A stretch of DNA of 64,000 bases from a bacterium (GCA_022072165.1 JAJVIF010000001.1:1258598-1322597), one strand, 5' to 3'; shown: positions 7,147 to 62,083, numbered from the stretch's first letter. Numbers and translations: made by a program. Notes: generated by a model from the sequence alone, not told the origin.

Positions 7147-8873
7147 TCCTCCTCCCGGGCTTCATCGATCTTGCGGGCGTACTTCTCCGGCATCTCGATG
7201 GTCACTTTACGCGCCTGGTAGACTTCGTACCGCCGGACATCGAGGAACAGCCGCAGTTCATCGGCATCGATCCGCTCCCCCTTGGTGTTGGAGAAGTCGA
7301 CGTTTCCTTTGAGGGTCATCCATTCATCCCGATCGTGATACTCCCCGTATTCCGCCCAGGCCCGCTGGTCCTTCTGGACGACCTTGACCTGCCCGACACA
7401 GTAGAGGTATCCCGGCTCGGTGTAGGACATCGCCGCATCACAGTAGATGGTCGTCGCTTTCCGGGCATCCTCCCGGGCGCGTTCCTCTTCGACATCATCC
7501 AGCATCCCCGCTTTGGCCATCCAGTCGCCGGACGCCTGATGAATCACGACCTCGCCATCGGCTTCCATCACGCCGATTTCGTCGTGATTGATGATGTACC
7601 TGGCGGTCAGCCGCTTGTCCTTTTGGACCGCTTCCACGCCTCCCCAGGCTTCCACCAGTCCCTGCTTCCACCAGACCCGCATCTGATCCCCATAGAGGCT
7701 GGTGGTTTCCTTCGCGATGGCCCGCGCCGCCTTCTTGGCGTCCTTTTTCACCCGGTCTTCCAGCGACTCGGCATAAAACAGGACATCCTGGCGGGGCTCC
7801 AGGCGCTTGGCCTTCATGTCGATGTCCAGCAAATCGGCAAAGAGTCGCTTGTTCTTTTGCCAGGCGAAGACCTGCCGCTCGCGACGTTCAATCAGAGGCT
7901 GCGGAATCAGGGGGCCATAGAAGCGATCGATTTCCTCAGCGGATTTCTCCTGCCCTGCCAGGTACTCTTCGACCGCCTCCAGCTCCACCATCAGCGGGTT
8001 GCGATTTTTGTTCTCCGGCCGCAGGAGCCGCTGACTCGCGGGCTGGAACGCCCCGATCCGCCAGCGACGCAGCGCGGTGGCGGGGACATAGGGGTAGCAG
8101 GTCGCCTGGCGGGTGGTCTTGTCGTAGTAGACATACTCTGCGGCCACCCAGAGCCCTGCTTTGTCGTCGTCTTCGCCCGGTTTGGCGTCTTCAGGGTCCA
8201 GAATCCCTTCACGGGTCAGCAGATTCGGACGCTCGATTCCCCGCAGATACATCCGGACCGACCCGATGAACTCCAGGTGCGTGAGATCCCGGTCAGCGTA
8301 GAGGGAGTCCGCGATGATGTGATTCTCCTCAATCCGCATATCGACTGCGCCTGGACAGCGCAGTTCCTCGGTGTTTTCGTACCACGTCAGGTGGTTTGTC
8401 AGGAGGCGGGTGCTCCCCTCCCGGTCAATGAGCGACACGTTGTCATAGAGATGCAGCACCTTCACACGATTCTCAAATGCTGCCCGGTCCGCCTGTCCCG
8501 TGAGGTTAATCTGCCCATCCTTGAAGATGTGGAGCTGCTGCAGCGACTCCAGGCGGTTTTCCTGCAGTTCTCCGAACTTCACGGCCTTCACCGAGAAGAC
8601 TTCCCACGTTTTGCCCTTGTCGTCGTAGCCCGCAGCCCGAAGCCGCTCCACCTCGCTGACATCCGTCCGGTCTTCAGTGAAGACTGTTTGCAACTGCTCC
8701 CGGGAGCGGACCGTCGAGAGCCAGATCATCCAGGTCAGACTCCCCAAAATCAGAAACGCCACCAGCCCATCCCGGAGACCAACCAGCCATGGATACCGCC
8801 GCAACAGATCGACCGGCCCGTCATCAGCGGGCGGTTCGATCAGCGGAATCACATGGCGCTGGGTCTCTTCCAT
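7143..8873 (-). CDS. Membrane-anchored LptC/OstA-like protein (576 aa)
   Basis: Single N-terminal TM (LVAFLILGSLTWMIWL) followed by OstA-like strands (VKVLHLYDNVSLIDREG...). Translationally coupled to 5170..7146. Confidence 0.4.
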   Translation of the reverse strand: MEETQRHVIPLIEPPADDGPVDLLRRYPWLVGLRDGLVAFLILGSLTWMIWLSTVRSREQLQTVFTEDRTDVSEVERLRAAGYDDKGKTWEVFSVKAVKFGELQENRLESLQQLHIFKDGQINLTGQADRAAFENRVKVLHLYDNVSLIDREGSTRLLTNHLTWYENTEELRCPGAVDMRIEENHIIADSLYADRDLTHLEFIGSVRMYLRGIERPNLLTREGILDPEDAKPGEDDDKAGLWVAAEYVYYDKTTRQATCYPYVPATALRRWRIGAFQPASQRLLRPENKNRNPLMVELEAVEEYLAGQEKSAEEIDRFYGPLIPQPLIERRERQVFAWQKNKRLFADLLDIDMKAKRLEPRQDVLFYAESLEDRVKKDAKKAARAIAKETTSLYGDQMRVWWKQGLVEAWGGVEAVQKDKRLTARYIINHDEIGVMEADGEVVIHQASGDWMAKAGMLDDVEEERAREDARKATTIYCDAAMSYTEPGYLYCVGQVKVVQKDQRAWAEYGEYHDRDEWMTLKGNVDFSNTKGERIDADELRLFLDVRRYEVYQARKVTIEMPEKYARKIDEAREEE

Positions 8874-9481: not shown

Positions 9482-10402
9482 CTACTGCAGCTTGAGTTGC
9501 GATCCGGTGGAGCCGCCCAACATGATCATCATGAAGAGCTCCCCGATGACCTCATCAGCGGTCTTGGGGACCGGCTGGCCGGTGGTCATCGTCTGGGCAC
9601 CAGTCTCCGCGCTGGAAATCAGTTCCAGCTTGACCTGGTTCGCGCCACCGACCGCCTGACCGGACATGTTGGCCACGACTTTGGCGACAGGCAGCAGCGG
9701 AATAGTGTCGTGCAGATTGATGTGCACGTTACCTGCGCCGCCGGTGTCGCTGTAGTCCGCATGCCAGAACGGACTGTCATTAAATATCCCGGCCGGGACC
9801 TGCACTTTTTCCTTCCCGGTCCGCCAGTCGAAGGTGCCACTTGGTTCGGGAATCGTCGCGGGCTTCCCATCGGGAGTCATTTCCCCAACGGCGATGGCTG
9901 TTCCCTGCTTGGCGAGGTCTTTGAAAGAGACTTCATAGAGGGGCTGGCCCATGACCTGGAACTGAAATCGCTGCACCATGCTGGAAACAGGGTCCGGGCT
10001 GAGTTTCTGCACGCCATCGATGGCCTTTTTCCAGGCGGCATCATCGGTCTGGGTGGTCAGGAAGCGGAGGGTGAAACCACCAACGTAGGGCGCGATGGAC
10101 TGCCCCATGCTCCCTCCCGGATTGGTGAAGTTCCACTCGTACCAGTACGCCCCCCCTTCTTCACCGGTCAGGGCGAGGCGGACATCCAGCTGGAGGGTCC
10201 CCTGCTGGCCGGCATCCCAGGTCAGACGATGAGTCGCCTGCTGCCCAACTTTCCATGCCTTGGTCTGCGGGAAGACCATCCCGGACTTCAGAGCATCAAA
10301 AATTCCGGCTTTCGTCGCCGGTTCGGCAGACACCGGACCGCCCAACAGGCTGATCAGCCCACTCAGGGCCAGGATCCCAGTCATCCGGGAAAGTGATCGC
10401 AT
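9482..10402 (-). CDS. Secreted hypothetical protein
   Basis: Met followed by a signal peptide (MRSLSRMTGILALSGLISLLGG), with GGAG upstream. The start coordinate is +/-1 because of a hand-indexing ambiguity. Confidence 0.45.
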   Translation of the reverse strand: MRSLSRMTGILALSGLISLLGGPVSAEPATKAGIFDALKSGMVFPQTKAWKVGQQATHRLTWDAGQQGTLQLDVRLALTGEEGGAYWYEWNFTNPGGSMGQSIAPYVGGFTLRFLTTQTDDAAWKKAIDGVQKLSPDPVSSMVQRFQFQVMGQPLYEVSFKDLAKQGTAIAVGEMTPDGKPATIPEPSGTFDWRTGKEKVQVPAGIFNDSPFWHADYSDTGGAGNVHINLHDTIPLLPVAKVVANMSGQAVGGANQVKLELISSAETGAQTMTTGQPVPKTADEVIGELFMMIMLGGSTGSQLKLQ

Positions 10403-10502
10403 GGTGTCAGACTCCTTTGGTACCTCGGCAGATGTCGTGCCCGCCGCCAACTGTCAGCGCGGGGCGTCAAGTATACGTTCCGCCCTGTCAGGTGGAACGT
10501 CC

Positions 10503-12464
10503 CTAAGACTCCATTACTGCCGCCGACGTTGAACCCTGACGGGGGGGCAGGAGCGGCGCTGCCAGGTCTGGCAGGTACTTGGTCAACACGATGTGATTCG
10601 TGCCGGCCCCAAACTCCACCTGGTCCATCATCTGGCAGGTCAAAAAAATGCCCCGACCGCCATTTTCCTGCAAATGTTCGGTGGCCCGGGGGTCCTTCAA
10701 CGCCAGCGGGTCATAGCCGAGCCCCTGATCCTGGATGCTTAGGCGCAGACACCCCGGCTCCAGCAGGAGCTGGACCGCTATCGGGCGGCTGGCATCCCCC
10801 TGATGCCCGTGCCGGAAGGCGTTGGTCAGGACCTCATCGAGAGCCAGTCTGACCTGATACTGGATATGGTCAGAAATCCCGCGCGACGCCAGCCGCATCC
10901 GGAGGGTGTCCGCGAACAGCCCGAAGTCGGTGGGATAGAGCAGGCGCTCCTCCCGGACACCAATCGTGCAGCGGAGCAGCCATCCCCCCGCCCCACCAAG
11001 CTCCCCGACCACCTGTCGCAGGACATCCCAGTGCTGATGCGGAAAGGCCTGGGGGAGCCCCTGTAACTGATCGCGCACTGATTCGGCACTGCCGGGCTCG
11101 CCTGACGGGAGAATGCAGAAGCCCTCTCCTGGCAGCGCTTCCTGCTGCCAGACCTGCAGCACAGGACAACCGTGGGCGAGGTAGAGGGTCCGGTCGGGTA
11201 CCAGCGGCTGCCAGCTGCGACGCCGATGGGTCCAGGCGGAGAGGCCGACCGGGCCGAGTCCCGCGCATTCCATCGTTCGCCAGTCCGCTGAGAGGCGACC
11301 GGCGAGAATCCACCCCGGAAAGCCATCGGCCCGGGGCAACAGACAGGTGGAAATGAGTTCCTGCAGGACCTCCGGCACGGGGGTCAGTGGCCCGAGTCCG
11401 GCCCGGAGTCGTTGCGCGACTTCCCGCACCCAGGGCATCCATTCCTCATGACCCGCAGGGACCCCCACATGAATAAAGCCCTGCACTCCGCCCCCTAGGG
11501 GCCACCAGTCCTGCACCAGCGAGGTACCGGTGGTCACCGGCAACGCCTGGATGGTCCAGGGACCGGTCCAGAGCGATGGCGCGAGGGTTTGCTCCAGCGC
11601 TGGCGGTCCGGCCTGCATGAACGGCACGAGTTGTGAACTCGCCAGGTCCGCGCGCATGACGTCCTGGAAGAGGCATTCCACTAAAAGCCCCCCCCGCTCC
11701 AGCAGCCGACCACTCAGGATGACCGAAATGGCGGTGTCTCCGCGGCGATACTCCGCCCCCCGGCGGAACGGCTGCGGCTGCCCGAGCATCCCCTGCAGGA
11801 GACTGCGGGTGGCGTGGTCGAAGGGGAGTGTCAGCAGGGAGCGTCCACAGATGGTCAGCGGCTCCAGCTGGAGTCCCTCAGCCGCACTGGGATTGATGTG
11901 CCTGACAGTCAGATCGGCGTCACACAGGAGGAGTCCATGCTGGAGGGCTTCCGCCAGTGACTCCCAGGTGCGCAGATGGAGCGCACTCGGCACAGGGGCC
12001 GGTCGCGACACCATCGCCTCCTGCGCCGCCCGCAGCCGCAGATCCAGCGGATGGCCGCTCGCGGCGAGGGTGTGACCTGTGTGCGCGAGGTAGAGGACCA
12101 GGAGCTGTGTCGGGTCCCGGTCAGAGTCGAGACGGAGGATGAGGAGTTGCGGTTGCTCCGCACGCCGTCCCGGGAGGGCGAATCGACGCGGCGTGGCGGG
12201 CATCGGGAGCGGCCAAGTGAAGCGACGATCGTGGCTCGCCCGGGTCCAGAACTCCGGCAACCATTGCTCAATGAGGTCGGGGCTCAGGCCGCTTTGCGCG
12301 AAGAAGCGGTCATCGGGCAGGGGAATGAGGTCCGTGCCGAAGCCGCTCCGGGAAAGGAGCAGTCCGGTCTCGGCCTCGACTGCCGCGAGGAGTTGCACCA
12401 CCCGCGCTGGGGAGAGTCCCAACGCACCGGACAGGGGTCCGGCGGTCCCTGGCTCAGAGGTCAT
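10503..12464 (-). CDS. Multidomain partner-switching regulator: PAS domain, central degenerate region, and C-terminal HATPase_c anti-sigma-type Ser kinase
   Basis: C-terminal GHKL motifs (VLTNAFRHGH ... DQGLGYD ... GGRGIFL). PAS-like block LLLCDADLTVRHINPSAAEGL. Start chosen at the ATG at 12462-12464; the track ORF extends to 12671. Confidence 0.55.
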   Translation of the reverse strand: MTSEPGTAGPLSGALGLSPARVVQLLAAVEAETGLLLSRSGFGTDLIPLPDDRFFAQSGLSPDLIEQWLPEFWTRASHDRRFTWPLPMPATPRRFALPGRRAEQPQLLILRLDSDRDPTQLLVLYLAHTGHTLAASGHPLDLRLRAAQEAMVSRPAPVPSALHLRTWESLAEALQHGLLLCDADLTVRHINPSAAEGLQLEPLTICGRSLLTLPFDHATRSLLQGMLGQPQPFRRGAEYRRGDTAISVILSGRLLERGGLLVECLFQDVMRADLASSQLVPFMQAGPPALEQTLAPSLWTGPWTIQALPVTTGTSLVQDWWPLGGGVQGFIHVGVPAGHEEWMPWVREVAQRLRAGLGPLTPVPEVLQELISTCLLPRADGFPGWILAGRLSADWRTMECAGLGPVGLSAWTHRRRSWQPLVPDRTLYLAHGCPVLQVWQQEALPGEGFCILPSGEPGSAESVRDQLQGLPQAFPHQHWDVLRQVVGELGGAGGWLLRCTIGVREERLLYPTDFGLFADTLRMRLASRGISDHIQYQVRLALDEVLTNAFRHGHQGDASRPIAVQLLLEPGCLRLSIQDQGLGYDPLALKDPRATEHLQENGGRGIFLTCQMMDQVEFGAGTNHIVLTKYLPDLAAPLLPPRQGSTSAAVMES

Positions 12465-26701: not shown

Positions 26702-27726
26702 TGCCCTGGCTGTACCTGGCGCAGGCGTCCGGTGAAAACACCAGTCCGGAAAGTGCCCTGCTCAGCATTAACTGGAATCTGGTGCTGTTTAACCTGACCA
26801 CCCACAGCCTCCGGATTCTGCTGATTTTGGTGCTGACCACGGGCGGCTTGTGGCTCCTCCGACGCATCTTTCGCCGCCTCGGGCTCCGGGATAACGCGTT
26901 CGAGCTGAGCAAGGCCGATGATCGCGTACGTCGCACCAGCACGATCCTCCGACTGACCTACACCTTCATCCTTGTGGTCGCCTGGCTCATTTCGGGCCTG
27001 ACGATCCTGAGTCTGCTGGGCATCAACATCACACCTCTTCTTGCCGGTGCCGGGGTGGTCGGTATTGCTCTCGGCTTCGGTGCCCAGAGTCTGGTGCAGG
27101 ACATCATCGCCGGGCTCTTCATCCTCCTGGAAGAAAAAGTGAGGGTCGGGGATGTCCTACAGGTGAATGGTGTCACCGGGGTGGTGGAGCGGCTCGATTT
27201 GCGGACCCTGACCCTGCGGGACTTCAACGGCGATGCCCATTTCATACAGTGGGGCAAGCTGGACCGGGTGACCAATCTGACACTTCACTGGTCGCGGATG
27301 ATGATCGAAGTCAGCGCGCCGTATGACGCCGAGCCGGACCAGGTCATCACCGTACTGCAGGCGACCGCGCTGTCGCTCCATGATGATCCGGAATGGACCG
27401 ATTACTTTCTGGAAGAACCCCAGGTGCTCGGCATCACCAATCTGGCGGACTCCGCGATCGTCTATCGCATTACCTGCCGGGTCCGGGCCAGCTATCAGTG
27501 GACCCTCGCCCGGGAGTTACGGCGTCGTGTCTGGTATGGCTTCCGGGATGCAGGTCTGAGCTTTCCCTTCCCGCAACAAACTCAGTCCTTCGATGCCAGC
27601 ACCCCCCTGCGCATTCAGGTACTGGAGGGTGAGGCCGAAGGCCTGCTGGCACGTCCCACGCCCGCGCACGATGCCACGTCGCGTCCGGCACCGGTGGTCG
27701 ATCAGATTCCCGAAAGCGTGGACTAG
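26701..27726 (+). CDS. Mechanosensitive ion channel, MscS family
   Basis: TM3 pore helix GAGVVGIALGFGAQSLVQDIIAGLFILLE followed by a beta-domain VRVGDVLQVNGVTGVVERL. Confidence 0.8.
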   Translation: MPWLYLAQASGENTSPESALLSINWNLVLFNLTTHSLRILLILVLTTGGLWLLRRIFRRLGLRDNAFELSKADDRVRRTSTILRLTYTFILVVAWLISGLTILSLLGINITPLLAGAGVVGIALGFGAQSLVQDIIAGLFILLEEKVRVGDVLQVNGVTGVVERLDLRTLTLRDFNGDAHFIQWGKLDRVTNLTLHWSRMMIEVSAPYDAEPDQVITVLQATALSLHDDPEWTDYFLEEPQVLGITNLADSAIVYRITCRVRASYQWTLARELRRRVWYGFRDAGLSFPFPQQTQSFDASTPLRIQVLEGEAEGLLARPTPAHDATSRPAPVVDQIPESVD

Positions 27727-29105
27727 CGGATCTCGGAGTCCGAGAGCGAAAAGATGTCGGGTTCGTCACTGATGATTGGCGCTGCTTCGACGGGTAGCTT
27801 CAGACGGGACTGAGTGGTCCGGGAGACGGGGGACCATGAGGCCAGTCCACTACTTCCTGCCACGATGACTTCGTCCCAGCCATCGCCATCCATGTCACAG
27901 GCCCCGAGGGAAGCGACGCCCTCCAGGATGCCGGGTTGATGCAGTTCGAGCGCCACAGGCTCTGTCGCTGTTGGCATGGTCACCAGTGCCAGCCAGGTTT
28001 CGCTCCCCACGCGGAGGGCGAGGGCGAGTTGCGGTCCGGCAGCTCCGGGCAGCGCCCTGATCCAGGTAGCCCCCTTGAGTGCGGCATTCCAGGGGAAGGT
28101 CAGGTCCAGTGCCTGCTGCGGCTTGCCAGCTGCATCGAGCCGCAGGGTGGTCAGATGGGTTTTTGGCGGAGTCCCTTTAGGATCGGTCCAGAGAAAATGC
28201 ACACCCGGTGCGCGGGAGTCAGCGGGGAGGAGCGTGATGTCATTGCCTCGTCCCACTGGTGCGTTCTCGAAGAAGCCCTTGTCATTGAGTCGCTGGGCCC
28301 AGAGTTGCTGCCGGTAGCTCTCCTGCGGAAACGACCGCAGGCTCACGAGTTGCGGATTGCCGGTGCCCGTCAGATCGACAGTCTGCAGCGCGAGCATCGG
28401 AACTGGAGTCATCACCAGATCTGGCAGACGTGTCAGCATTCCGCCGCCGGTGGCATCCGCCCGGTACCGGAGCCAGGCATCGGGAGCGGCGGTCGAGCCG
28501 CCGGCATAGCCGCCGAACGATGCGATCACCAGGTCATTGCTGGTCGCGGACGGCAGGAGGCCGGGAAACTCTTTGATGTCCTTCGGGGCATCCTGCTGCA
28601 GGAGGACCTGGGGCGGGGAGTCGGCAAGATTCAGCACTGTCGTACGCATCATCACGGACCCGGCAGTTGGCTTGCGCCCAGAGTACGGCACCTGGGGCCC
28701 CGTGGAAGCCGGATCAAGGGTCACCTGACAGCGGACCAGGAGCTCATCGGCCCGGTCGCCGGTGAGGTCGCCGAGCAGCCAGCTCTCCGGTGTCCCTTCC
28801 AGCAAGAGCGGTGGAGCCAGCGCCCGGAAGCCCCCAGCGCTACCGGACATCCGGTGCACGGCCGTCGCACCGCCTCCAGTGCCCTGGCGTAACGTCCCTT
28901 TCAGGAGCACGAGACACTCGGACCCCGCCGGGGTCTGGCGCGATCTGACTGCCGCTGGAGTCCAGTTGAAATCGGCGTATTGCCCCCGAAAAACCGTGGT
29001 TTCTCCCGATGGGAGCACAGGAGTCCCGGGGTCGAGGACCTCGAACTGTGCACTGGCGGACTGCACCAGCAGCAACAGCAGCAGGAAAGGCAGCAATGGG
29101 CGCAT
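27723..29105 (-). CDS. Secreted FG-GAP/beta-propeller-like repeat protein
   Basis: Signal peptide and a DMDGDGWDEVIVAG integrin-alpha-type repeat. Confidence 0.45.
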   Translation of the reverse strand: MRPLLPFLLLLLLVQSASAQFEVLDPGTPVLPSGETTVFRGQYADFNWTPAAVRSRQTPAGSECLVLLKGTLRQGTGGGATAVHRMSGSAGGFRALAPPLLLEGTPESWLLGDLTGDRADELLVRCQVTLDPASTGPQVPYSGRKPTAGSVMMRTTVLNLADSPPQVLLQQDAPKDIKEFPGLLPSATSNDLVIASFGGYAGGSTAAPDAWLRYRADATGGGMLTRLPDLVMTPVPMLALQTVDLTGTGNPQLVSLRSFPQESYRQQLWAQRLNDKGFFENAPVGRGNDITLLPADSRAPGVHFLWTDPKGTPPKTHLTTLRLDAAGKPQQALDLTFPWNAALKGATWIRALPGAAGPQLALALRVGSETWLALVTMPTATEPVALELHQPGILEGVASLGACDMDGDGWDEVIVAGSSGLASWSPVSRTTQSRLKLPVEAAPIISDEPDIFSLSDSEIR

Positions 29106-29232
29106 GGAAGAAGCGTAGCACTCCCCGTGCCGGGAGAGTGGAGCCGGTGGGGCGGGTTTGTTATTATCCCGGCATCCCCGGGAGCACGCTCAAGCCTGCG
29201 CCGGGAGTCAGGACAAAGGAGCACCGCGAGAC

Positions 29233-29526
29233 GTGCCACGCAATGACTACGAAAGTGCCCTGGGCATGATTGAAACCAAAGGGCTGGTCGGCGCCATTGA
29301 AGCGGCTGACGCTATGGTGAAGGCGGCCCGGGTCACGCTGACCGGCAAAGAAACCATCGGCGGGGGGTATGTGACCGTCTTTGTCCGCGGCGAAGTCGGC
29401 GCGGTCCGGGCAGCCACCGATGCCGGAGCTGCGGCGGCGCAGCGGGTGGGCGAACTGGTGTCCGTCCATGTGATCCCGCGTCCGCACGACGAAGTGGAAA
29501 TGCTCCTCCCCCAGCCCAAGGGCTAG
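29233..29526 (+). CDS. BMC-H shell protein (Pfam00936-type hexamer)
   Basis: [32 protein letters not shown]...[46 protein letters not shown] start with AAGGAG 13 nt upstream. Confidence 0.9.
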
Positions 29527-29544: not shown

Positions 29545-30117
29545 ATGGCCACAGGACAGGGATCCCAGCCCATGGCGGCGCTGGGCCTCATTGAGACTAT
29601 CGGTGCCGTCGGTGGCATCGAAGCGGCGGATGCTGCGCTGAAAGCAGCCAGGGTCCGGCTGATTGGCAAGGAATACGCCGATGCCGGACTCCACCTGATC
29701 AAGCTGGTCGGCGAAGTAGCGGCGGTCCGTGCGGCGGTGGATGCTGGCGCGGCGGCGGCGCAGCGGGTCGGACAGCTCGCCGGGACCCATGTGATTCCCC
29801 GTCCCGACATCCAACTCGAAGCCTGGATGTTTGCTCCTACCGGCAGCCCCAAAGCGATGGCCTTTACTCGTGCTCCCGAACTTGGCCAGCGTGCCACCGG
29901 GAGTGGCGATGATGATGGGAGCACGGATGAAGCGCCGGCAGCCACTCCTGGCGTGCTCCCAGCAGACTTTGCCGAGCTCCCGGTCCGGGAACTCCGGGGC
30001 GTCGTCCGGACCTTGCCGGATTTCCCGCTCCAGGGACGGCAGGTCTCGACCGCCACCCGCGAACAGTTACTTGATGCCATCCGCGAATGGCAGGCACGTC
30101 CGGGCGCTGGGGGGTAA
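29545..30117 (+). CDS. BMC-H shell protein with a ~95-aa C-terminal extension
   Basis: Canonical BMC domain (AALGLIETIGAVGGIEAADAALKAARVRLIGKE...), then an acidic low-complexity linker and a predicted helical tail. Confidence 0.85.
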   Translation: MATGQGSQPMAALGLIETIGAVGGIEAADAALKAARVRLIGKEYADAGLHLIKLVGEVAAVRAAVDAGAAAAQRVGQLAGTHVIPRPDIQLEAWMFAPTGSPKAMAFTRAPELGQRATGSGDDDGSTDEAPAATPGVLPADFAELPVRELRGVVRTLPDFPLQGRQVSTATREQLLDAIREWQARPGAGG

Positions 30118-30120
30118 GCC

Positions 30121-31659
30121 ATGCCCCTGGACCGCGATCTCGCCTCGATGCAGGAAGTCCGCGATCTGGTCGGACGGGCGGTGGCCGCCCAGCAGCAGAT
30201 GATGGGGCTGGATCAGGCCGCGATTGACCGCATTGTCGAGGCGATGGCAGAAGCGGGATACCGGGCTTCCGCGCAGTTGGGACAGCTCGCCTGGGAAGAG
30301 ACCACCTACGGCAATCCGGGCGACAAGCGGGTCAAGAATGAGTTTGGATCCCGGTCCATCGGCGAAGCGATCCGGGGGATGCGGACCATCGGGTATCTCG
30401 GGGAGCAACCAGCCACCCGGATCCGGGAATTCGCCTGGCCCTATGGGGTCATCGGGGCCATCACTCCGACGACCAATCCCACCAGCACAATCATGTACAA
30501 GGCGATCATCGCCGTGAAGTCGGGCAACGCGCTGGTGGCGTCGCCGCATCCCCATGCGGTCCGCTCCAGTTGCGCCGCCATGGATGTCGTGGGCCGGGCC
30601 GCGGAAGCGGCGGGCCTCCCCAGTGGTGCACTCGGCTGTATCTCGCAGCCGACCATGGCGGGAACCCAGGAGTTGATGCGTCATCCGCAGGTCGATCTGA
30701 TCCTGGCGACCGGCGGCAAGGAGATGGTGAAGGCTGCCTATTCCTCAGGAAAGCCCGCTTATGGAGTCGGGCCGGGGAATGTCCCGGTCTATGTCGACCG
30801 GTCAGCGGATGTCGCCACCGCCGCCCAAAGAATTGTTCAGGGGAAAACCTTCGACTGGGGCACCCTCTGTTCGTCCGAGCAGTGCATCGTCGCGGATCGT
30901 CCCATCGCCGATGCCCTGCGGCGGGCACTGGAAGAAACGGGAGGCTACTTCCTCTCGCCGGAGCAAAAACGGGCGGTGGAGCAGGTCCTCATTGAGCCGA
31001 GCGGCCGGGTGAATGTGAAGCTGATCGGTCATCCTCCACAGGCCATCGCCGAGGCGGCAGGCTTTCGGGTGGAAAGCCAGGTCCGGGCGCTGATTGCGCC
31101 GATCGATGAAGTAGGGCGTCGCGAGCCCCTGTCGCTGGAAAAGCTGTCGCCGGTCCTGGCCTTTACGGTCCGGGAGGGCTGGGAAGCCGGCTGTCATACC
31201 TGCATCGACCTGCTGCATGTGGGAGGCGAGGGGCATACCCTGGGTCTCTACTGCCAGGATGAGCAAATCATCATGGAGTTCGGACTCAAAAAGCCGGTGT
31301 TCCGTATTTGTGTGAATACCCCCACGTCGATCGGTGCGGTGGGCGTCACGACCGGCCTCTTCCCGGCGATGACCCTCGGGTGTGGTGCCCCGGGGGGCAA
31401 CATCACGTCGGACAACATCGGCCCGCAGCATCTCTACAACAAGAAGCGTCTGGCGTTTCATTTGCGCGATGTCGCGCCAGCCGCCGCGCCGTCACCAACG
31501 GCGATGGCTCCAGGACGCCCTGGTCCAGGTGGGGGTTTCTCAGCGGTCACCGCCTGTTCGCCGCTGCATCCCACCGGATGCGACACCTCCAGCTTCCACG
31601 GGCTGACTGAGCGGGACATCGAAGCGATCCTCGCGCAGATGTCCGGCGGACGGCGCTAG
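30121..31659 (+). CDS. CoA-acylating aldehyde dehydrogenase (EutE/PduP-like) with a C-terminal encapsulation-peptide-like extension
   Basis: ALDH fold with catalytic Cys in the GTLCSSEQC context. A Pro/Ala/Gly-rich linker is followed by the amphipathic LTERDIEAILAQMSG at the C-terminus. Confidence 0.85.
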   Translation: MPLDRDLASMQEVRDLVGRAVAAQQQMMGLDQAAIDRIVEAMAEAGYRASAQLGQLAWEETTYGNPGDKRVKNEFGSRSIGEAIRGMRTIGYLGEQPATRIREFAWPYGVIGAITPTTNPTSTIMYKAIIAVKSGNALVASPHPHAVRSSCAAMDVVGRAAEAAGLPSGALGCISQPTMAGTQELMRHPQVDLILATGGKEMVKAAYSSGKPAYGVGPGNVPVYVDRSADVATAAQRIVQGKTFDWGTLCSSEQCIVADRPIADALRRALEETGGYFLSPEQKRAVEQVLIEPSGRVNVKLIGHPPQAIAEAAGFRVESQVRALIAPIDEVGRREPLSLEKLSPVLAFTVREGWEAGCHTCIDLLHVGGEGHTLGLYCQDEQIIMEFGLKKPVFRICVNTPTSIGAVGVTTGLFPAMTLGCGAPGGNITSDNIGPQHLYNKKRLAFHLRDVAPAAAPSPTAMAPGRPGPGGGFSAVTACSPLHPTGCDTSSFHGLTERDIEAILAQMSGGRR

Positions 31660-31672
31660 GGCACCGGGCTCT

Positions 31673-32329
31673 ATGGACCCGCTGCCCGGTATGCTGGAAC
31701 CGAAAGGCTCCTTCGATGCCTGGATGATGGTGAATGGAGCCTACTTAGGGGGTGGGTTCCTCGGACTGATCGCCCTCGTCATTCTCTCTATCGCGATTCT
31801 GAGCTTCCTTGAAATCCGACTCTCCCGGCGGGTGGATAGCAGGATGGAGTTCTATGCCCAGACGGTCGGGGAAGTGTTGAAATCAAAACTGATTGAAGGG
31901 CGCAGTCGCCACGGCACCCGGTACTACGTCCCCGTCATTGAGTATCAGTATCAGGTGGACGGCAAAACCTACAAGAGTCACCGCATTTACCCTGCGGAGT
32001 TCGGCGAGAGTGTCGATAAAGCCTGGGGCGAGCAGCTGGTCGCGAATTTTCCAGTCGGCCTACATTTCATGGTCTACTTCGACCCGGAGCGACCACGAGA
32101 CTGCGTGGTGATCCGCGACCCCTCCATGGTGAAGCGGTCTGTCACCGGCCACCTGGTCATGGGGATCCTGATGGTGATTACCGCTGTCTGGATCATCTGG
32201 GCGGTCTTCACCAAAATCCTGCCCGAGGCGGGGAAGCCGCTGCCGCAGGACTGGTATGGCGAGAATGTGCAGGTGGAATCCCCCTGGACCATGGAACCTG
32301 TGCCGCAAATCTTGCAGCCATCGCCCTGA
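31673..32329 (+). CDS. DUF3592-like membrane protein embedded in the BMC operon
   Basis: Two TM helices flank a beta-rich domain (YYVPVIEYQYQVDGKTYKS...VYFDPERP). Confidence 0.55.
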   Translation: MDPLPGMLEPKGSFDAWMMVNGAYLGGGFLGLIALVILSIAILSFLEIRLSRRVDSRMEFYAQTVGEVLKSKLIEGRSRHGTRYYVPVIEYQYQVDGKTYKSHRIYPAEFGESVDKAWGEQLVANFPVGLHFMVYFDPERPRDCVVIRDPSMVKRSVTGHLVMGILMVITAVWIIWAVFTKILPEAGKPLPQDWYGENVQVESPWTMEPVPQILQPSP

Positions 32330-32390: not shown

Positions 32391-32699
32391 ATGACCGCTC
32401 CGCATGAGACCGCCCTCGGACTGGTGGAAACCAAAGGACTCATCGCCGCCATCGAGGCGGCTGATGCGATGGTGAAGGCTGCGCGGGTGACCCTGGTCGG
32501 CAAAGAGAAAATTGGTGCGGGGTTTGTCACGGTCATGGTGCGCGGCGATGTCGGGGCGGTCCGGGCTGCCACAGATGCCGGGGCTGCCGCTGCGGATCGC
32601 GTAGGGCAGCTGGTGTCGGTGCATGTGATTCCGCGTCCGCATGGCGATGTTGAAGAGATCCTGCCGAATCACGGCCAGCCGCCTGCCCCAGCTAAATAG
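32391..32699 (+). CDS. BMC-H shell protein
   Basis: [77 protein letters not shown]. Confidence 0.9.
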
Positions 32700-32701
32700 G
32701 G

Positions 32702-33556
32702 ATGCATGTAGCGACCCTTGGGTCTCCCTGGACAGGGTCAGCACCGCGCCGCAGGTGGCATGTATTCGCACTACTCCTAACCTGCCTCATCACTGGGCCA
32801 GTCAGCGCTGATCCCCTCCCCTTTCCCACCGCCGCAGAACTCGGTCGCACCATTGATCAGTTCAATGGTCCCTGCGGTCATGCCGATGGCGATGGTGTCC
32901 TCTCCGGCACACTCCTCCTGCTGGCCCCCTTGGGGCATCACTTCACTTTCACGGCCACCATCGTCGAGTGCGACTCTATGCAGCGTCGCCCACTGACTGA
33001 ACGGGAAGCGCTGTTTGAATGGCTGGGTGTGTATGACCAGCGTCGGGATGAAGCCTGGACCTGGCTCGCCGACGCGCTGCAATCGCAACCGCAACAGGTG
33101 GGGTCCACCCTGCGTCGTGGGGCACTGATCCTGTTGCTCCAGGAATCCCCGGAACGGGTCGCGCAAATGCGCCCACTGCTGCGTCAGCAGGCTGATCCCG
33201 CCACGATTCGGCTGGCCCTGACCATGGAGGGGGGGCAGTATCTGGACCCCTTCGCCCGAGGACTCGGTCGGGACCTGGATGCCACCGGCACGCTCTATCG
33301 CGCAGCATTTGCTGACCTTGGGATCCTTCCGCTGTGCGACAACTGCCCCTCAGAGCCGCGTGGCACTGATGTGGAACAAGCCTGGGCGTTTATGTTCCTT
33401 TCACTCCACCCGCGTCAGCAACCCCGGGAGCTGCCTGCTCGCCTGGCAGAGAGCTGGTACCGCCCCTATTTGCAGCAATACACCGACGGCTCACTGCTGG
33501 AGCGATCGCTGGCGGCCGTGGTACTCTGGCGGCTGCATCCGACGGAGTCACGCTAA
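32702..33556 (+). CDS. Hypothetical protein (284 aa) translationally coupled inside the BMC operon
   Basis: ATG 3 nt after the BMC-H stop; the next gene's ATG is 3 nt after its own stop. Hydrophobic N-terminal segment and a possible HEAT-like helical repeat region. No recognisable enzyme motif. Confidence 0.5.
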   Translation: MHVATLGSPWTGSAPRRRWHVFALLLTCLITGPVSADPLPFPTAAELGRTIDQFNGPCGHADGDGVLSGTLLLLAPLGHHFTFTATIVECDSMQRRPLTEREALFEWLGVYDQRRDEAWTWLADALQSQPQQVGSTLRRGALILLLQESPERVAQMRPLLRQQADPATIRLALTMEGGQYLDPFARGLGRDLDATGTLYRAAFADLGILPLCDNCPSEPRGTDVEQAWAFMFLSLHPRQQPRELPARLAESWYRPYLQQYTDGSLLERSLAAVVLWRLHPTESR

Positions 33557-33558
33557 CT

Positions 33559-34362
33559 ATGCCCACCTCGCCCTGCGCCTGTGTCGCCCCGCTTCCGGGC
33601 CTGCCGCCGATCCCAATTCGGCGGATACGGGCCTATGCCCAGCTTTCCCGTGAAGCGATGGACGCCCTCTTTGGTCGAGGGAGCACGCTGACAGTGCTCC
33701 GCGATTTGGGTGAGCGTCCGTTCTTTGTCGCGAATCAGCAGATTCGGCTCTGCGGGATCGATGGGAGCACACAGGCGATCTCGGTTGTCGGGCCGATTGC
33801 GGCTATGACAGAGATCGTGCTGAGTCCGCTGGTGGCTGCTGCTGCTCGACTCGCGCCGCCCGTGCGGGTGCCCGGCGATCAGGACGAAACCGATGGGGGC
33901 TGCCTGCGGGGACCGTCGGGGGATTACCACCTGGATGACGGCATCCTGGTGCTCCGGCCACATCTCGTGCTCCCAGCGCAGCTTGCCGCAGCGACTGGGA
34001 TGGCTCAGGGTGATGAAGTCGCGGTCTGGCTGCCAGGAAGCGCGCCAATCGTGCTCCCGCAGGTTCCGTGCATGCTCCGTGATGTCCGGGATCCGGAGAT
34101 GCGCGTGGATGCTGATCTCGCGAACCGGGTGCAAACGCCAGATGGGGCGACCGCCACCGTGCTCCCGCGCCTCAGCGAACCGGTTGCGCCTGGGATCGGG
34201 GGGGTGCATGCCCCGCTGCCGGTCATCACGGAGGCCGATATCGTCAGGGCACACCTCGCTGGCAAGACCCTTCGGGCGGATCAGGGGACCATCGTGACCC
34301 CTGCAGCACAGGAAGCGGACCGGCGGTACCATGTGCTCGTGCCCCCACCAGCGGGGCGGTAA
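33559..34362 (+). CDS. PduL-like phosphotransacylase (PTAC) homolog with diverged metal-site motifs
   Basis: Two-repeat PduL architecture with the LFG motif (AQLSREAMDALFG) and a V(V/L)GP block. The positions of the RHxH motifs read RAYAQ and RPHLV. Confidence 0.6.
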   Translation: MPTSPCACVAPLPGLPPIPIRRIRAYAQLSREAMDALFGRGSTLTVLRDLGERPFFVANQQIRLCGIDGSTQAISVVGPIAAMTEIVLSPLVAAAARLAPPVRVPGDQDETDGGCLRGPSGDYHLDDGILVLRPHLVLPAQLAAATGMAQGDEVAVWLPGSAPIVLPQVPCMLRDVRDPEMRVDADLANRVQTPDGATATVLPRLSEPVAPGIGGVHAPLPVITEADIVRAHLAGKTLRADQGTIVTPAAQEADRRYHVLVPPPAGR

Positions 34363-34387
34363 TCAGGGATCACAGGGAGGCAGTCGC

Positions 34388-34720
34388 ATGTTTCTGGGAC
34401 GCGTGGTGGGGTCAGTCTGGGCCACCAAGAAGACCGAAAGCCTTGAGGGCCTCCGGCTGCTGATCGTGCAACCATTTGATTTGCGGCTCGACCCCAACAC
34501 CGCAGTAGTCGTCGCTGCCGACACTATCGGCGCAGGCGTGGATGAAGTCGTCATCGTCGCCTATGGACGGGCGGCACGGCTGGCGACCGGCAATGTCAAT
34601 GCCGCGTTGGAAGCGGCGGTCGTCGGGATTGTCGATGCGGTGGACCTCCAGCGCCTGGAAGGTGCTCCAGAACTCTCTGCGGCAGCGCAGTCCTTCCTCG
34701 CTCCTCGCTCCCGGAGCTGA
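34388..34720 (+). CDS. BMC-P vertex protein (EutN/CcmL/PduN family)
   Basis: MFLGRVVGSVWATKKTESLEGLRLLIVQP...DTIGAGVDEVVIVAYGRAAR. GGGAGG RBS 9 nt upstream. Confidence 0.8.
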   Translation: MFLGRVVGSVWATKKTESLEGLRLLIVQPFDLRLDPNTAVVVAADTIGAGVDEVVIVAYGRAARLATGNVNAALEAAVVGIVDAVDLQRLEGAPELSAAAQSFLAPRSRS

Positions 34721-34809: not shown

Positions 34810-34951
34810 ATGAGATCAGCATCTGGACTTATACCGTTCAAAATGAACTAGTGGTGCGCTACGAAAGCGCTTGTCATTGTGTGCTTTTCAGGGTACAAAG
34901 GAGGTGCTCCGCCCATTAGACACGTCGTAAGTTATCAGGGTCCGTACATCA

Positions 34952-35599
34952 ATGCCGTCACAAGGCCTGTCCAAAAGCGACCGGGGTGATCTCTTGGTGC
35001 TGGGTTTGCTGCAAAGCAGGCCGCGTCATGGTTATGAGTTAAAGCGTCTGCTGGGACAGTCCCTGGCGGGCATCGGACGCCCGGTGGCATCCACGCTGTA
35101 CTACACCCTGAAACGGCTGCACCGGGCGGGGAGCATCACTACTGAGAGTGCCCTCGGACCCACCGGGCAGTTTGCGCCCCGGAGTATCTGGGAAATGACC
35201 GCCACCGGTCGGGGATCGTTGGAGACCCTGTGTCATAAAGCGCTAGACGATCTGACCTGCCCCGCGCCGCTGACCTTCGGGGTCCTGCTGGCTGAAGAAC
35301 GCTCTGCAGCGGAACTGCGCCGGTTGCTGCAACAGCGACATGCCCGTCTGCTCCGCGAAACGCAGCTGCTCGTCAGAGATTCCAACAACCAGGCTGACCG
35401 GTGCCTGATTTCGATGTATCAGCTCTGTCAGCAGCAACTCGGGCTCGAACTGGGATGGATCGATGGCTTGCTGCAGCACCCGGCGATGGGGACACCGGCA
35501 GACCATGGGTCGGAATCTGCACCAGCTGACACGAACTGGCTGGAGGCCTTCGCCCCGCCTTCGCTCGCATGTGCTCCCACCATGTCCGAGGGCCACTAA
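34952..35599 (+). CDS. PadR-family transcriptional regulator with a C-terminal extension
   Basis: LLVLGLLQSRPRHGYELKRLL...STLYYTLKRLHRAGSI winged-helix PadR signature. Preceded by an AT-rich region. Confidence 0.75.
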   Translation: MPSQGLSKSDRGDLLVLGLLQSRPRHGYELKRLLGQSLAGIGRPVASTLYYTLKRLHRAGSITTESALGPTGQFAPRSIWEMTATGRGSLETLCHKALDDLTCPAPLTFGVLLAEERSAAELRRLLQQRHARLLRETQLLVRDSNNQADRCLISMYQLCQQQLGLELGWIDGLLQHPAMGTPADHGSESAPADTNWLEAFAPPSLACAPTMSEGH

Positions 35600-47124: not shown

Positions 47125-49239
47125 ATGAGTGAACGCCCTGCCCCGACCGGTCTCGATGCCCTCTTTGCCCCCCGGGGAGTCGCCATCATCGGCGCTTCCC
47201 GCGAAGAACACACCATCGGTCGGGAGATTCTGGAGAATCTGATTGGCGCGGGATTCCAGGGACCGATTTTCCCGGTGAATCCCAAGGCTCCCTGGGTCAA
47301 CAGCCTCAAGTGCTACCCCTCCGTGACCACCATTCCCGACCCGGTGGATCTCGCCATCATCGTGGTGCCATGCGTCCATGTCCCGGGCGTATTGCGCGAA
47401 TGCGGGCAGCAGGGGATCCGGGGGGCAGTGATTATCTCCAACGGCTTCAAAGAGGTGGGAGGCGAGGGCATCGCCCGGGAAGAGGAACTGCTGGCGATCG
47501 CGGCGGAATATGGCATCCGGCTGATTGGTCCGAACTGCATGGGGATTCTGAACATGGACCCCGCCATCGGGCTGAATGCATCGTTTGCCAAAGCCGTCCC
47601 GACCCCGGGTGCGGTGGGCTTTATGTCGCAGTCCGGAGCGCTCGGCGAAACGATTCTGAATGTCGCGGAAGATCTGGGCCTGGGACTGGCCCAGTTTGTC
47701 AGTCTCGGCAACATGGCCGATGTCGATGGGCTGGAGCTGCTGGAGTACTGGGGCAAAAATCCCGACATCCGGCTCGTGATGATGTATCTCGAGCAGCTGA
47801 GTGAGCCGCATCGCTTCATCGACATCGCGAGTCAGGTGACACGCCACAAGCCGGTGGTGGTGGTGAAGGCCGGACGCTCCCCCCAGGGGGCCCGGGCGGT
47901 AGCCTCGCATACCGGGAGTCTGGCGGGCAGTGACGTCGGACGAGTCCATCTGTTCGAGCAGTGCGGCGTACTACGGGCAGAGCGGATGGAGGAACTCTTC
48001 GACATCGGGATGCTGCTGGTGAGTCAGCCCCTCCCCCGGGGGAATCGGGTCGGGATCGTGACAAACAGTGGTGGTCCCGGGATTCTGGCTACCGACGCCC
48101 TCATCGCAAACGGCCTCCAGGTCTCGCCGCTGAGTCCCCGGACCCGGGACAATCTGCGTCTGCGGGTCCCGACAGGGGCCTCGCTGAATAATCCCGTCGA
48201 CCTCACCGCTGGCGCGACTTCGCAGCATTTCCGCCTCGCCATCGAAGCGCTGCTGCAGGACCCGCTTATCGACATCCTCATGGTTGTCTTCATCAGTCCG
48301 GTGATGCTAAATGCGGCCGAAGTGGCGGACTATATCGTGCAGGGCGCGGGAGTCACCGACAAGCCCGTGGTGACTGTCTTTATGAACGAACGGCAGGGCG
48401 AAGACGCGGTGCGTCGGCTGCAACAGGCCGGGATCCCCAACTATCGCTTCCCGGAGTCGGCAGCCCGGGCGCTGGCAAGTCTGACCTGGTACGCCGACTA
48501 TCTGTCCCAGCCTGCAGGAGAGCGTCGGGCTTTCGACTTTGATGTCCCGGCGCTCAAAGCCCTGCTGGCGCAGGCGGCACCCGATGGCTGGCTGCCGTTT
48601 GATCTCGCCATGGAGTTACTGGGCCTTATCGGTATTCCGACGGTTCGGTCCCGGTTCGTGGACCGGGAGGCTGCGCCACCGCCCGAGGGAGCGTATACCG
48701 TGGTGCTGAAAACCATCAGCCCCAAGTTACAGCACAAGTCCGACGCGGGGGGAGTCGTAGTGGGAATTGCCGATGCCGCGCACTGGACCACCGCATTAGC
48801 GGCCATGCACGAACGCTTGCGGCAGGCGGGCCTCCAGCCGGCGGACTACCGGATTCTGGAACAGGAGCAGGTACCCGGCGGCGAAGAGATCATCATCGGT
48901 GTCAGTCGGGAAGACTCGCTGGGGCATCTGATCATGTTTGGGCTGGGGGGGACTACGGTCGAAGTCCTGAAGGATGTCGTCTTCCGGCTGCATCCCCTCA
49001 CGACCCTGCAGGCAGCCAAGATGGTCCGGGAGATTCAGGGACTTCCTCTGCTCACCGGGTTCCGGGGCCGGACTCCGACGGACCTGGACTTTGCCGAGGA
49101 ACTCCTGTTACGGGTCAGCGCCCTGCTGGAAGTCTGCCCGGAGATTGTGGAACTGGACCTGAATCCGTTCATGCTGACCGACCAGGCGGCAAGCAGCCGG
49201 GCGGTGGATGTCCGTCTCCGGGTGGCGACGAGCGAGTAA
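47125..49239 (+). CDS. Acetyl-CoA synthetase (ADP-forming), fused alpha/beta (NDP-forming acyl-CoA synthetase)
   Basis: CoA-binding N-terminus (VAIIGASREEHTIGREIL), ligase-CoA domain (GPNCMGILN) and a C-terminal ATP-grasp domain. Confidence 0.8.
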   Translation: MSERPAPTGLDALFAPRGVAIIGASREEHTIGREILENLIGAGFQGPIFPVNPKAPWVNSLKCYPSVTTIPDPVDLAIIVVPCVHVPGVLRECGQQGIRGAVIISNGFKEVGGEGIAREEELLAIAAEYGIRLIGPNCMGILNMDPAIGLNASFAKAVPTPGAVGFMSQSGALGETILNVAEDLGLGLAQFVSLGNMADVDGLELLEYWGKNPDIRLVMMYLEQLSEPHRFIDIASQVTRHKPVVVVKAGRSPQGARAVASHTGSLAGSDVGRVHLFEQCGVLRAERMEELFDIGMLLVSQPLPRGNRVGIVTNSGGPGILATDALIANGLQVSPLSPRTRDNLRLRVPTGASLNNPVDLTAGATSQHFRLAIEALLQDPLIDILMVVFISPVMLNAAEVADYIVQGAGVTDKPVVTVFMNERQGEDAVRRLQQAGIPNYRFPESAARALASLTWYADYLSQPAGERRAFDFDVPALKALLAQAAPDGWLPFDLAMELLGLIGIPTVRSRFVDREAAPPPEGAYTVVLKTISPKLQHKSDAGGVVVGIADAAHWTTALAAMHERLRQAGLQPADYRILEQEQVPGGEEIIIGVSREDSLGHLIMFGLGGTTVEVLKDVVFRLHPLTTLQAAKMVREIQGLPLLTGFRGRTPTDLDFAEELLLRVSALLEVCPEIVELDLNPFMLTDQAASSRAVDVRLRVATSE

Positions 49240-62000: not shown

Positions 62001-62083
62001 TCGCGGGGGATATCGACATCGACGTTTTTGAGGTTGTGCTGCCGCGCCCCCCGTACCGAAATGACCTGCTTACCCGGTGTCAT
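59012..62083 (-). CDS. uvrA: Excinuclease ABC subunit A with a Lys/Ala-rich C-terminal tail
   Basis: Two ABC ATPase modules ([20 protein letters not shown]) and zinc-finger Cys clusters. The last ~55 aa are [17 protein letters not shown]...APRKS. Confidence 0.95.

Follow-up and report, generated by a model that had tools for sequence, protein, structure and literature searches.

The window analysed here is a stretch of 64,000 nucleotides of bacterial DNA (GCA_022072165.1, JAJVIF010000001.1:1258598-1322597), which carries an operon for a bacterial microcompartment (BMC). The gene in question (the target) lies in the core of this operon at 32702..33556 on the + strand; its open reading frame (ORF) runs from the ATG at 32702 to the TAA at 33554-33556 and encodes a 284-residue precursor of an orphan family that is specific to BMC operons. 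The operon order is BMC-H, extended BMC-H, aldehyde dehydrogenase (AldDh), DUF3592, BMC-H, target, PduL and BMC-P, and then PadR. An earlier note on this DNA had proposed, from co-translation with these genes, that the target is a shell-associated scaffold or cargo organiser, or else a membrane tether. On balance, we favour a different reading, in which the target is a Sec-exported, probably periplasmic HEAT-like solenoid and an ancillary extracytoplasmic part of an uncatalogued metabolosome operon.

The target is joined closely to the genes on both sides. The upstream BMC-H gene (32391..32699, +; PF00936, E=3.6e-29) ends with the stop codon TAG at 32697-32699, and the spacer 'GG' precedes the target ATG; after the target stop, the spacer 'CT' precedes the PduL ATG at 33559. 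Both junctions are therefore as tight as had been noted before, although the spacing given then, 3 nt, describes an ATG that begins at the third base after the stop, and the real spacer is 2 nt. The sole Shine-Dalgarno-like bases before the target ATG, AGGG, abut it directly, so we infer that the target probably starts by termination-reinitiation on BMC-H ribosomes. The region 5' of the hydrophobic N-terminal segment holds no alternative in-frame start codon. No terminator-like site was found within the operon on the + strand, and one weak site follows BMC-P at 34856-34870.

The target is a genuine gene under purifying selection. By the Nei-Gojobori method, the ratio of nonsynonymous to synonymous substitution (dN/dS) is 0.21 against the orthologue in locus L003, which is 81% identical over its full length, and 0.26-0.36 against orthologues of about 43% identity. 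Its content of G and C (GC), overall and at third codon positions (GC3), is the same as in the adjacent genes, and the antisense ORFs that overlap it are the usual artefacts of high-GC DNA. No second copy of the family was found in the rest of the window.

The family is small. A word-indexed search returned orthologues of the target at 94%, 84%, 83%, 45% and 44% identity, the closest database protein being the one at 94%, with no identical copy. When 1.84 billion cluster representatives were searched exhaustively with phmmer, eight matches were obtained in all; they added members at 38-42% and a further one at 34% in a partial alignment, or 28-29% when the full length is counted. Word-indexed searches by single sequence and by profile gave no members beyond those known, and a scan of metagenomes of the Joint Genome Institute (JGI) gave one more locus (L052), with a member fragment in the same gene context. 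Orthologues span 94% to 28% identity on ten other contigs, and the family comprises about ten sequences. Scans of the target and of every family member against Pfam and NCBIfam yielded no usable match, a weak HEAT_2 match (Pfam, E=0.0056) occurring in one of 11 members, and the family profile matched nothing below E=1.5 among PDB sequences; with these searches empty for the target, the statement of the earlier note that no catalytic family can be recognised holds good. The family motifs found zero relatives in 185,579 GTDB species genomes. The PduL alignment, run against the same genomes, gave 44 loci, all at most 33% identical, and a search of their six-frame ORFs with a hidden Markov model found a family member in none of the 44.

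All carrying contigs share one gene order: zero to three DUF3592 copies, BMC-H, target, PduL and BMC-P. The synteny of the last four genes is strict in the ten other contigs, down to 28-45% identity of the target. The upstream BMC-H neighbour is kept in L001-L004, in L049 (where its stop codon is visible) and in L051, and the downstream PduL neighbour is kept wherever the locus reaches that far. From the BMC-H stop to the target the spacer is 0-15 nt in seven loci, so the close coupling to shell and core genes that had been read from the window alone is kept in its relatives; the target stop overlaps or abuts the PduL start in related loci, with overlap in L001 and L002. The loci are L003 (member P0003, 83% identical to the window protein), L001 (P0004, 45%; two DUF3592 copies), L002 (P0005, 44%; no DUF3592 in the locus), L004 (P0006 and its tandem paralogue P0010; three DUF3592 copies), L049 (P0007), L050 (P0008, from the NCBI metagenome-assembled genome (MAG) GCA_039930725.1), L051 (P0009, from the NCBI MAG GCA_035627715.1; three DUF3592 copies) and L052, a JGI contig in which the member fragment is followed by PduL, BMC-P, PadR and a TolC-like gene. 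Among the samples that carry the family are SRR28110210, SRR30202055, SRR25377792 and SRR13378644. The target is present in every related BMC locus found; its absence from all of them, which the earlier note had named as part of a refutation, is not observed.

It could be argued that the target is a functionally unrelated passenger gene in the operon, as direct functional evidence for a link with the organelle is lacking and the loci were all found via the target gene itself. We regard this as most improbable. The family occurs nowhere else among the approximately 1.84 billion representatives, its position and tight junctions are kept at 28-45% identity while the flanking genes change, it has been duplicated in tandem inside the L004 operon, and it is under purifying selection.

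The tandem duplication lies at L004 4253-5988, where P0010 is the upstream copy with 301 aa. The signal peptide and the cysteines C58 and C90 are kept in P0010, but the CxxC and His motifs are gone and two insertions have been acquired; P0010 has the look of a degenerate partner copy.

The N-terminus of the target carries the evidence on where the protein would act. A hydrophobic N-terminal segment, as had been recognised earlier, is present: the stretch WHVFALLLTCLITGPVSA occupies residues 19-36, and the Kyte-Doolittle hydropathy over 12 residues peaks at 2.43 at residues 21-32. Residues 1-36 (32702..32809, +) form a predicted Sec-type signal peptide with an RRR n-region, the h-region VFALLLTCLITG and the c-region PVSA, and the predicted cut lies before DPLPFP; the whole reads ...APRRRWH-VFALLLTCLITG-PVSA, then DPLP. 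A Sec signal peptide has an n-region that is usually positive, a hydrophobic h-region of 7-15 residues, a polar c-region and small residues at -3 and -1. By this rule, the three-part layout is found in nine of the nine members with a 5' end, their N-termini having been compared after correction, since several member gene calls had short starts. Besides the window protein, these are L003 (...LRRWWQAVTLLLTCLCTGPLNA, predicted cut before DP), L001 (MGLSLRRLSVSIVFVIAMCCAPSLTLVRA, before ET), L002 (MPALLNWPSGGAALAVPLLLLALLLPARA, before DT), P0006 (MRALCMVLLFLLLALPASA, before EE), P0010 (MIRALLIVLVLLLPFPIHA, before ED), L049 (MLRRLQLLAVLLAVLGVSPVVFA, before AP), L050 (...GVLFLLLVLLPASA, before AP) and L051 (MRPTALGFLLPLLLLPAPAHA, before AD). 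The small-x-small sites of the nine members are VSA, LNA, VRA, ARA, ASA, VFA, ASA, AHA and IHA; their h-regions have 10-13 residues and end with Pro or Gly, their n-regions are positive or neutral, and the mature start is acidic or neutral, with zero Lys or Arg among mature residues 1-5 in all nine. This anatomy makes export of the target a strong inference from sequence.

Two consequences follow for the location of the protein. The first is that the hydrophobic cores, with 10-13 residues, are too short to span the membrane stably. The second is that the solenoid would lie outside the cytoplasm even without cleavage, because the n-region is positive and the residues past the site are acidic or neutral; since this charge distribution places the domain outside the cytoplasm, direct contact of the target with the cytoplasmic shell is unlikely.

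These features also bear on the possibility that the target is a lumenal or shell-bound scaffold, in which the hydrophobic N-terminus would serve, in an odd way, for targeting or for binding to the shell, and AldDh and PduL would be organised by the solenoid inside the compartment. Such a role would agree with the place of the target, which in every locus is translationally coupled to a shell gene on one side and a core-enzyme gene on the other, with the typical use of solenoids as scaffolds between proteins, and with the restriction of the family to BMC operons. However, the N-terminus is uniformly hydrophobic and essentially without an amphipathic moment. On the Eisenberg scale, the N-terminal helix of the target has a mean hydrophobicity of 0.74 and a helical moment of 0.15, and the h-regions of the nine members range over 0.57-0.95 and 0.02-0.16, respectively, whereas the encapsulation-like C-terminal helix of AldDh in the same operon has a mean hydrophobicity of 0.06 and a moment of 0.34, and the encapsulation peptides of Salmonella PduP and PduD have moments of 0.37-0.71. 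Also against a scaffold are the conserved cleavage-type site of the small-x-small form with acidic residues after it, the conserved C-terminal helix, which packs into the fold without a linker (moment 0.05), and the conserved paired cysteines, which are atypical for a cytoplasmic structural protein. We thus consider the scaffold unlikely; the segment from which it had been proposed is a conserved Sec-type signal peptide rather than an amphipathic encapsulation peptide.

That the target is an uncleaved signal-anchor protein joining the microcompartment to the inner membrane appears distinctly unlikely. Such an anchor would agree with the single N-terminal hydrophobic segment and with the co-encoded membrane protein DUF3592, but the core has only 10-13 residues and a Pro or Gly at its end, with a cleavage-type site after it, and the positive n-region would make the bulk of the domain face the periplasm, away from the shell. 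The part of membrane tether, which the earlier note had offered to the target, fits better with the adjacent DUF3592 protein, which has two full-length transmembrane (TM) helices and a cytoplasmic domain.

Several known classes of protein were considered and rejected for the target. A Tat substrate was rejected as the motif S/T-R-R-x-F-L-K is absent; RR occurs in only four of the nine members, without the consensus context, the n-regions of P0006, P0009 and P0010 having a single R and that of L002 none. For a lipoprotein, the lipobox [LVI][ASTVI][GAS]C does not match: LLTC (residues 25-28) in the window protein misfits, and Cys28 is not conserved beyond the closest relatives. Encapsulation-peptide cargo, which would carry a terminal amphipathic helix of about 15-20 residues on a flexible linker, was rejected from the lack of an amphipathic moment in the N-terminal helix (0.02-0.16 versus 0.34-0.71) and from its hydrophobicity (0.57-0.95 versus about 0). 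A polytopic transporter of the PduF/EutH type would have several transmembrane helices and a MIP or EutH domain, whereas the target has one hydrophobic segment, which is short, and no Pfam match; outside that segment, Kyte-Doolittle hydropathy over 19 residues stays below 1.1. Finally, a BMC shell protein was rejected because PF00936 and PF03319 are absent; the window protein has no Pfam match at E ≤ 0.01, and these two families match none of the 11 members at E ≤ 10.

The mature domain (32810..33553, +) has 248 residues and an isoelectric point of 5.2 and is modelled as a 12-helix HEAT/ARM-like alpha-solenoid. In the AlphaFold2 model of the window protein, made from an 11-sequence alignment, the predicted local distance difference test (pLDDT) is 81.2 and the predicted template-modelling score (pTM) is 0.78; helix 17-30 is detached with low pLDDT, a disordered linker comes next, and then the twelve-helix body. 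An independent model of P0006, which is 35% identical, has a pLDDT of 83.6, a pTM of 0.82 and a matching helix pattern. The best structural matches of the two independent models are HEAT/ARM solenoids, namely E. coli YibA (1oyz), the phycocyanobilin lyase CpcE/F (5n3u) and designed armadillo proteins. In a Foldseek search of the PDB, no match fell below E=0.1, and designed armadillo proteins ranked first. When parts of the family alignment were compared with one another as profiles by hhalign, no internal sequence repeats were found. The helical, HEAT-like character that had been suspected is thus right as a fold class, as the models are all-helical, whereas membership of the HEAT family, which is marked by tandem helical-hairpin repeats of about 40 residues that family profiles recognise, is unproven.

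Three motifs with cysteines are conserved in the solenoid. The first is G56-P-C58-G-H60 (32867..32881, +), with the family form [H/N]GPCG[H/N] (alignments A1, A2 and A4); C58 occurs in every member that has this region, and H60 is replaced by N in L050 and deleted in P0010. The second is V88-E89-C90 (32963..32971, +), in which C90 is invariant, P0010 included. The third is C212-D-N-C215-P-S-E-P-R-G-T (33335..33367, +), a CxxC that is CxC in L002, L049 and L050, with the family form C212-x(1-2)-C215-P-x-E-P-[RH]-G-[TS]. Conservation is strong as well in the C-terminal helix, with the motif RxQAAVV[LI]WRL. P0010 has lost both C212 and C215 and has retained C58 and C90; because it loses and keeps its cysteines pairwise, we distinguish two independent pairs, C58/C90 and C212/C215. 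In a protein that is exported, such pairs would fit disulfides or two-Cys motifs.

The same residues admit the possibility of an extracytoplasmic enzyme, in which HGPCGH, VEC and CxxCPSEPRGT would form a metal or thiol site and supply the missing signature step of the pathway by releasing or modifying a compound whose aldehyde feeds the AldDh/PduL metabolosome. We find this rather unlikely: the target has no likeness to an enzyme family by sequence or fold, a clue to the substrate is lacking, H60 is not invariant, being N in L050, and the CxxC/CxC variation and pairwise loss also fit disulfides.

Specific cofactor-binding or metal-binding classes were also considered for these motifs. A four-Cys Fe-S or zinc cluster is less likely, as the cysteines are kept or lost pairwise and CxxC varies with CxC. 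The CxxCH motif of a c-type cytochrome does not occur, since CxxC is followed by P and not by H, and the HxxxCxxC motif of a zinc anti-sigma (ZAS) factor does not occur either, with Ile standing four positions before C212.

Taken as an exported solenoid, the target could act as follows. The precursor would be exported by the Sec pathway and its signal peptide of about 36 residues removed, and the 248-residue acidic HEAT/ARM-like solenoid would be located in the periplasm of a diderm host, or beyond it. The solenoid would probably be stabilised by the C58/C90 and C212/C215 pairs, or would use them, and its expression would be locked to that of the shell and core genes through translational coupling. 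The most likely role would be that of a binding or adaptor protein for the substrate of the organelle, or for a signal, on the outer side of the inner membrane; DUF3592 proteins and, in some relatives, a TolC-like outer-membrane factor may be its partners.

Several points weigh against this reading. The results point to no ligand, partner or catalytic activity for the target, and the alignments under the models have only 10-11 sequences. The n-region is without charge in L002 and very long (about 45 aa) in L050. Because the loci were all retrieved through the target gene, the impression that it is always present in this BMC type carries an ascertainment bias. Moreover, the predicted periplasmic tails of DUF3592 vary by locus (39 aa versus 6-8 aa) and the L002 locus is without DUF3592, so a fixed complex of target and DUF3592 is unsupported and would be a hypothesis only.

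The DUF3592 protein is encoded two genes upstream of the target (31673..32329, +; PF12158, E=1.9e-14). It is a two-transmembrane protein of 218 aa with TM helices at 28-46 and 161-179; most copies are rich in Arg and Lys directly after TM1, and their N-terminal tails are acidic. By the positive-inside rule, the domain of about 115 residues would lie in the cytoplasm and the tails outside, and DUF3592, rather than the target, is a plausible membrane tether of the microcompartment. Related loci have zero to three tandem copies, which lie at 1180-2432 in L001, 1598-3870 in L004 and 228-1933 in L051. The literature gave no link between DUF3592 and BMCs, and DUF3592 is essentially uncharacterised.

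The host is diderm, as indicated by LptC and LptA/LptD_N genes in the window and OEP genes in sister loci. The former, which point to an LPS-transport bridge, lie at 5170-8873 on the - strand and encode 658 and 576 aa, unusually long for Lpt components. The latter encode a TolC-like outer-membrane factor (PF02321, OEP) after BMC-P or PadR (L001 5827-7344, L004 7309-8787, L050 2530-3074 and L052 2257-3876). The window and L003 have no OEP gene, and there the next gene after PadR is SurA/TPR-like and lies on the opposite strand. We put forward, tentatively and as a reading of low probability, that the exported target, one to three DUF3592 proteins that keep their cytoplasmic domains at the inner membrane and, in some lineages, the TolC-like factor could form a trans-envelope module, so that the microcompartment would be wired to the envelope physically or functionally. 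Such a module would directly feed a substrate derived from the periplasm, or an aldehyde generated there, to a membrane-docked metabolosome, or would export its product. If so, it would be the first case of a metabolosome that has an accessory apparatus of its own across the envelope, possibly with an extracytoplasmic signature reaction.

Comparison with known systems places the target at some distance from each of them. BMC loci are described as carrying ancillary envelope proteins, 'cell membrane transporters for substrates' (Sutter et al., 2021; PMC8217296). Like the facilitators PduF and EutH, the target is encoded in a BMC operon, is neither shell nor core enzyme and is predicted at the envelope. 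It differs from them in that a single signal peptide of the cleavable type precedes a soluble solenoid of 248 aa, with no polytopic membrane channel and no transporter homology, and in its place in the operon core between a shell gene and PduL and not at the periphery. With encapsulation-peptide cargo (PduP, PduD and type I AldDh) the target shares a terminal helix, a flexible segment and a position beside shell genes; nevertheless, its helix is uniformly hydrophobic with a small-x-small site after it, and the AldDh of the same operon has a conventional helix. The likeness to the HEAT/ARM solenoids YibA and CpcE/F lies in the stacked helical hairpins of the target models. We found no literature precedent for a soluble exported protein between BMC shell and core genes, and nothing relevant in the literature on signal peptides in BMC loci or on membrane-tethered metabolosomes.

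From about ten metagenomic sequences, we regard the target as representing a new protein family and its operon as a new variation on the metabolosome theme. BMC operons are commonly taken as an inventory of the organelle. Genes of unassigned function between BMC shell and core genes are usually presumed to encode lumenal cargo or scaffolds; here, the most tightly embedded one is predicted to be exported, with DUF3592 as a second envelope protein of the operon, and it points to a link between microcompartment and cell envelope. If this is true, some metabolosome pathways start, or are sensed, in the periplasm, and the lack of a signature enzyme in 'incomplete core' BMC types may be due to a first step, or a capture of substrate, that takes place beyond the cytoplasm. 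It would also provide the first context-based functional handle for DUF3592.

The remaining genes of the operon conform to a metabolosome. The first BMC-H lies in the mechanical ORF 29158..29526 (+), with PF00936 from residue 34; its true start is probably about 25 codons inside this ORF (about 29233), the L003 orthologue having 97 aa. The second BMC-H (29545..30117, +) has PF00936 over residues 12-87 of 190 and a C-terminal extension of about 100 aa, and its tail closes with a conserved-looking helical segment, LPVRELRGVVRTLPDFPLQGRQVSTATREQLLDAIREWQ. The acylating AldDh, a core enzyme (30121..31659, +; PF00171), ends with a Pro/Gly-rich linker and the amphipathic, encapsulation-peptide-like helix LTERDIEAILAQM; the 'type I' BMC AldDhs of the 2021 catalogue (PMC8217296) have a tail of this kind. 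Directly downstream of the target lies the PduL-type phosphotransacylase (PTAC) gene (33559..34362, +; PF06130, E=2.5e-24). A P-C-A-C motif lies at the N-terminus of PduL, and at its C-terminus there is a conserved extension of about 60 residues (ITEADIVRAHLAGKTLR...GTIVTPAAQEADRRYHV), which is missing in the L002 orthologue (alignment A3). The last operon gene is the BMC-P pentamer (34388..34720, +; PF03319, E=2.4e-27, domain from residue 20), the start of which was set at Met20 of the ORF 34331-34720, the L003 orthologue having 110 aa. The PadR regulator (34952-35599) lies 3' of BMC-P.

By family scan, the operon has AldDh, PTAC/PduL, BMC-H and BMC-P and is without a signature enzyme, and its shell set consists of three BMC-H and a single BMC-P, with no BMC-T. 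Core genes without a signature enzyme are also a feature of the MIC and MUF metabolosomes of the 2021 catalogue, types whose core is incomplete or whose function is unassigned. In the catalogue's descriptions of MIC3, MIC4, MIC6, MIC7, MUF2 and MUF3, there is no DUF3592, signal-peptide protein or shell set of this kind, and the supplementary text of the catalogue has no DUF3592 entry; the closest GTDB PduL is at most 33% identical. The best named relative of the window UvrA (59012-62083, -) is in a MAG labelled Planctomycetota (80%, partial), and other MAGs are at 63-79%. From the GTDB scans, the MAG and UvrA relatives and the catalogue mismatch, we regard the lineage and the BMC type as essentially undescribed, the lineage being without a family match in GTDB species genomes. 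The finding thus marks an uncatalogued BMC type in an unclassified lineage, with no close relative among the GTDB species genomes.

Two genes outside the operon may be mentioned. A 460-aa protein is encoded at 27723-29105 (-), divergent from the BMC operon, and has weak FG-GAP-like repeats and, by eye, a signal-peptide-like N-terminus; a similar-sized, unannotated ORF occupies the equivalent place in L002 (47-1435) and L003 (4960-6342). An ADP-forming acyl-CoA synthetase with CoA_binding, Succ_CoA_lig and ATP-grasp_5 domains is encoded 12 kb downstream in the window (47125-49239, +) and may be the ATP-yielding outlet for the acyl-CoA of the organelle; in L002, an acyl-CoA synthetase gene lies directly beside the BMC locus (9705-11825).

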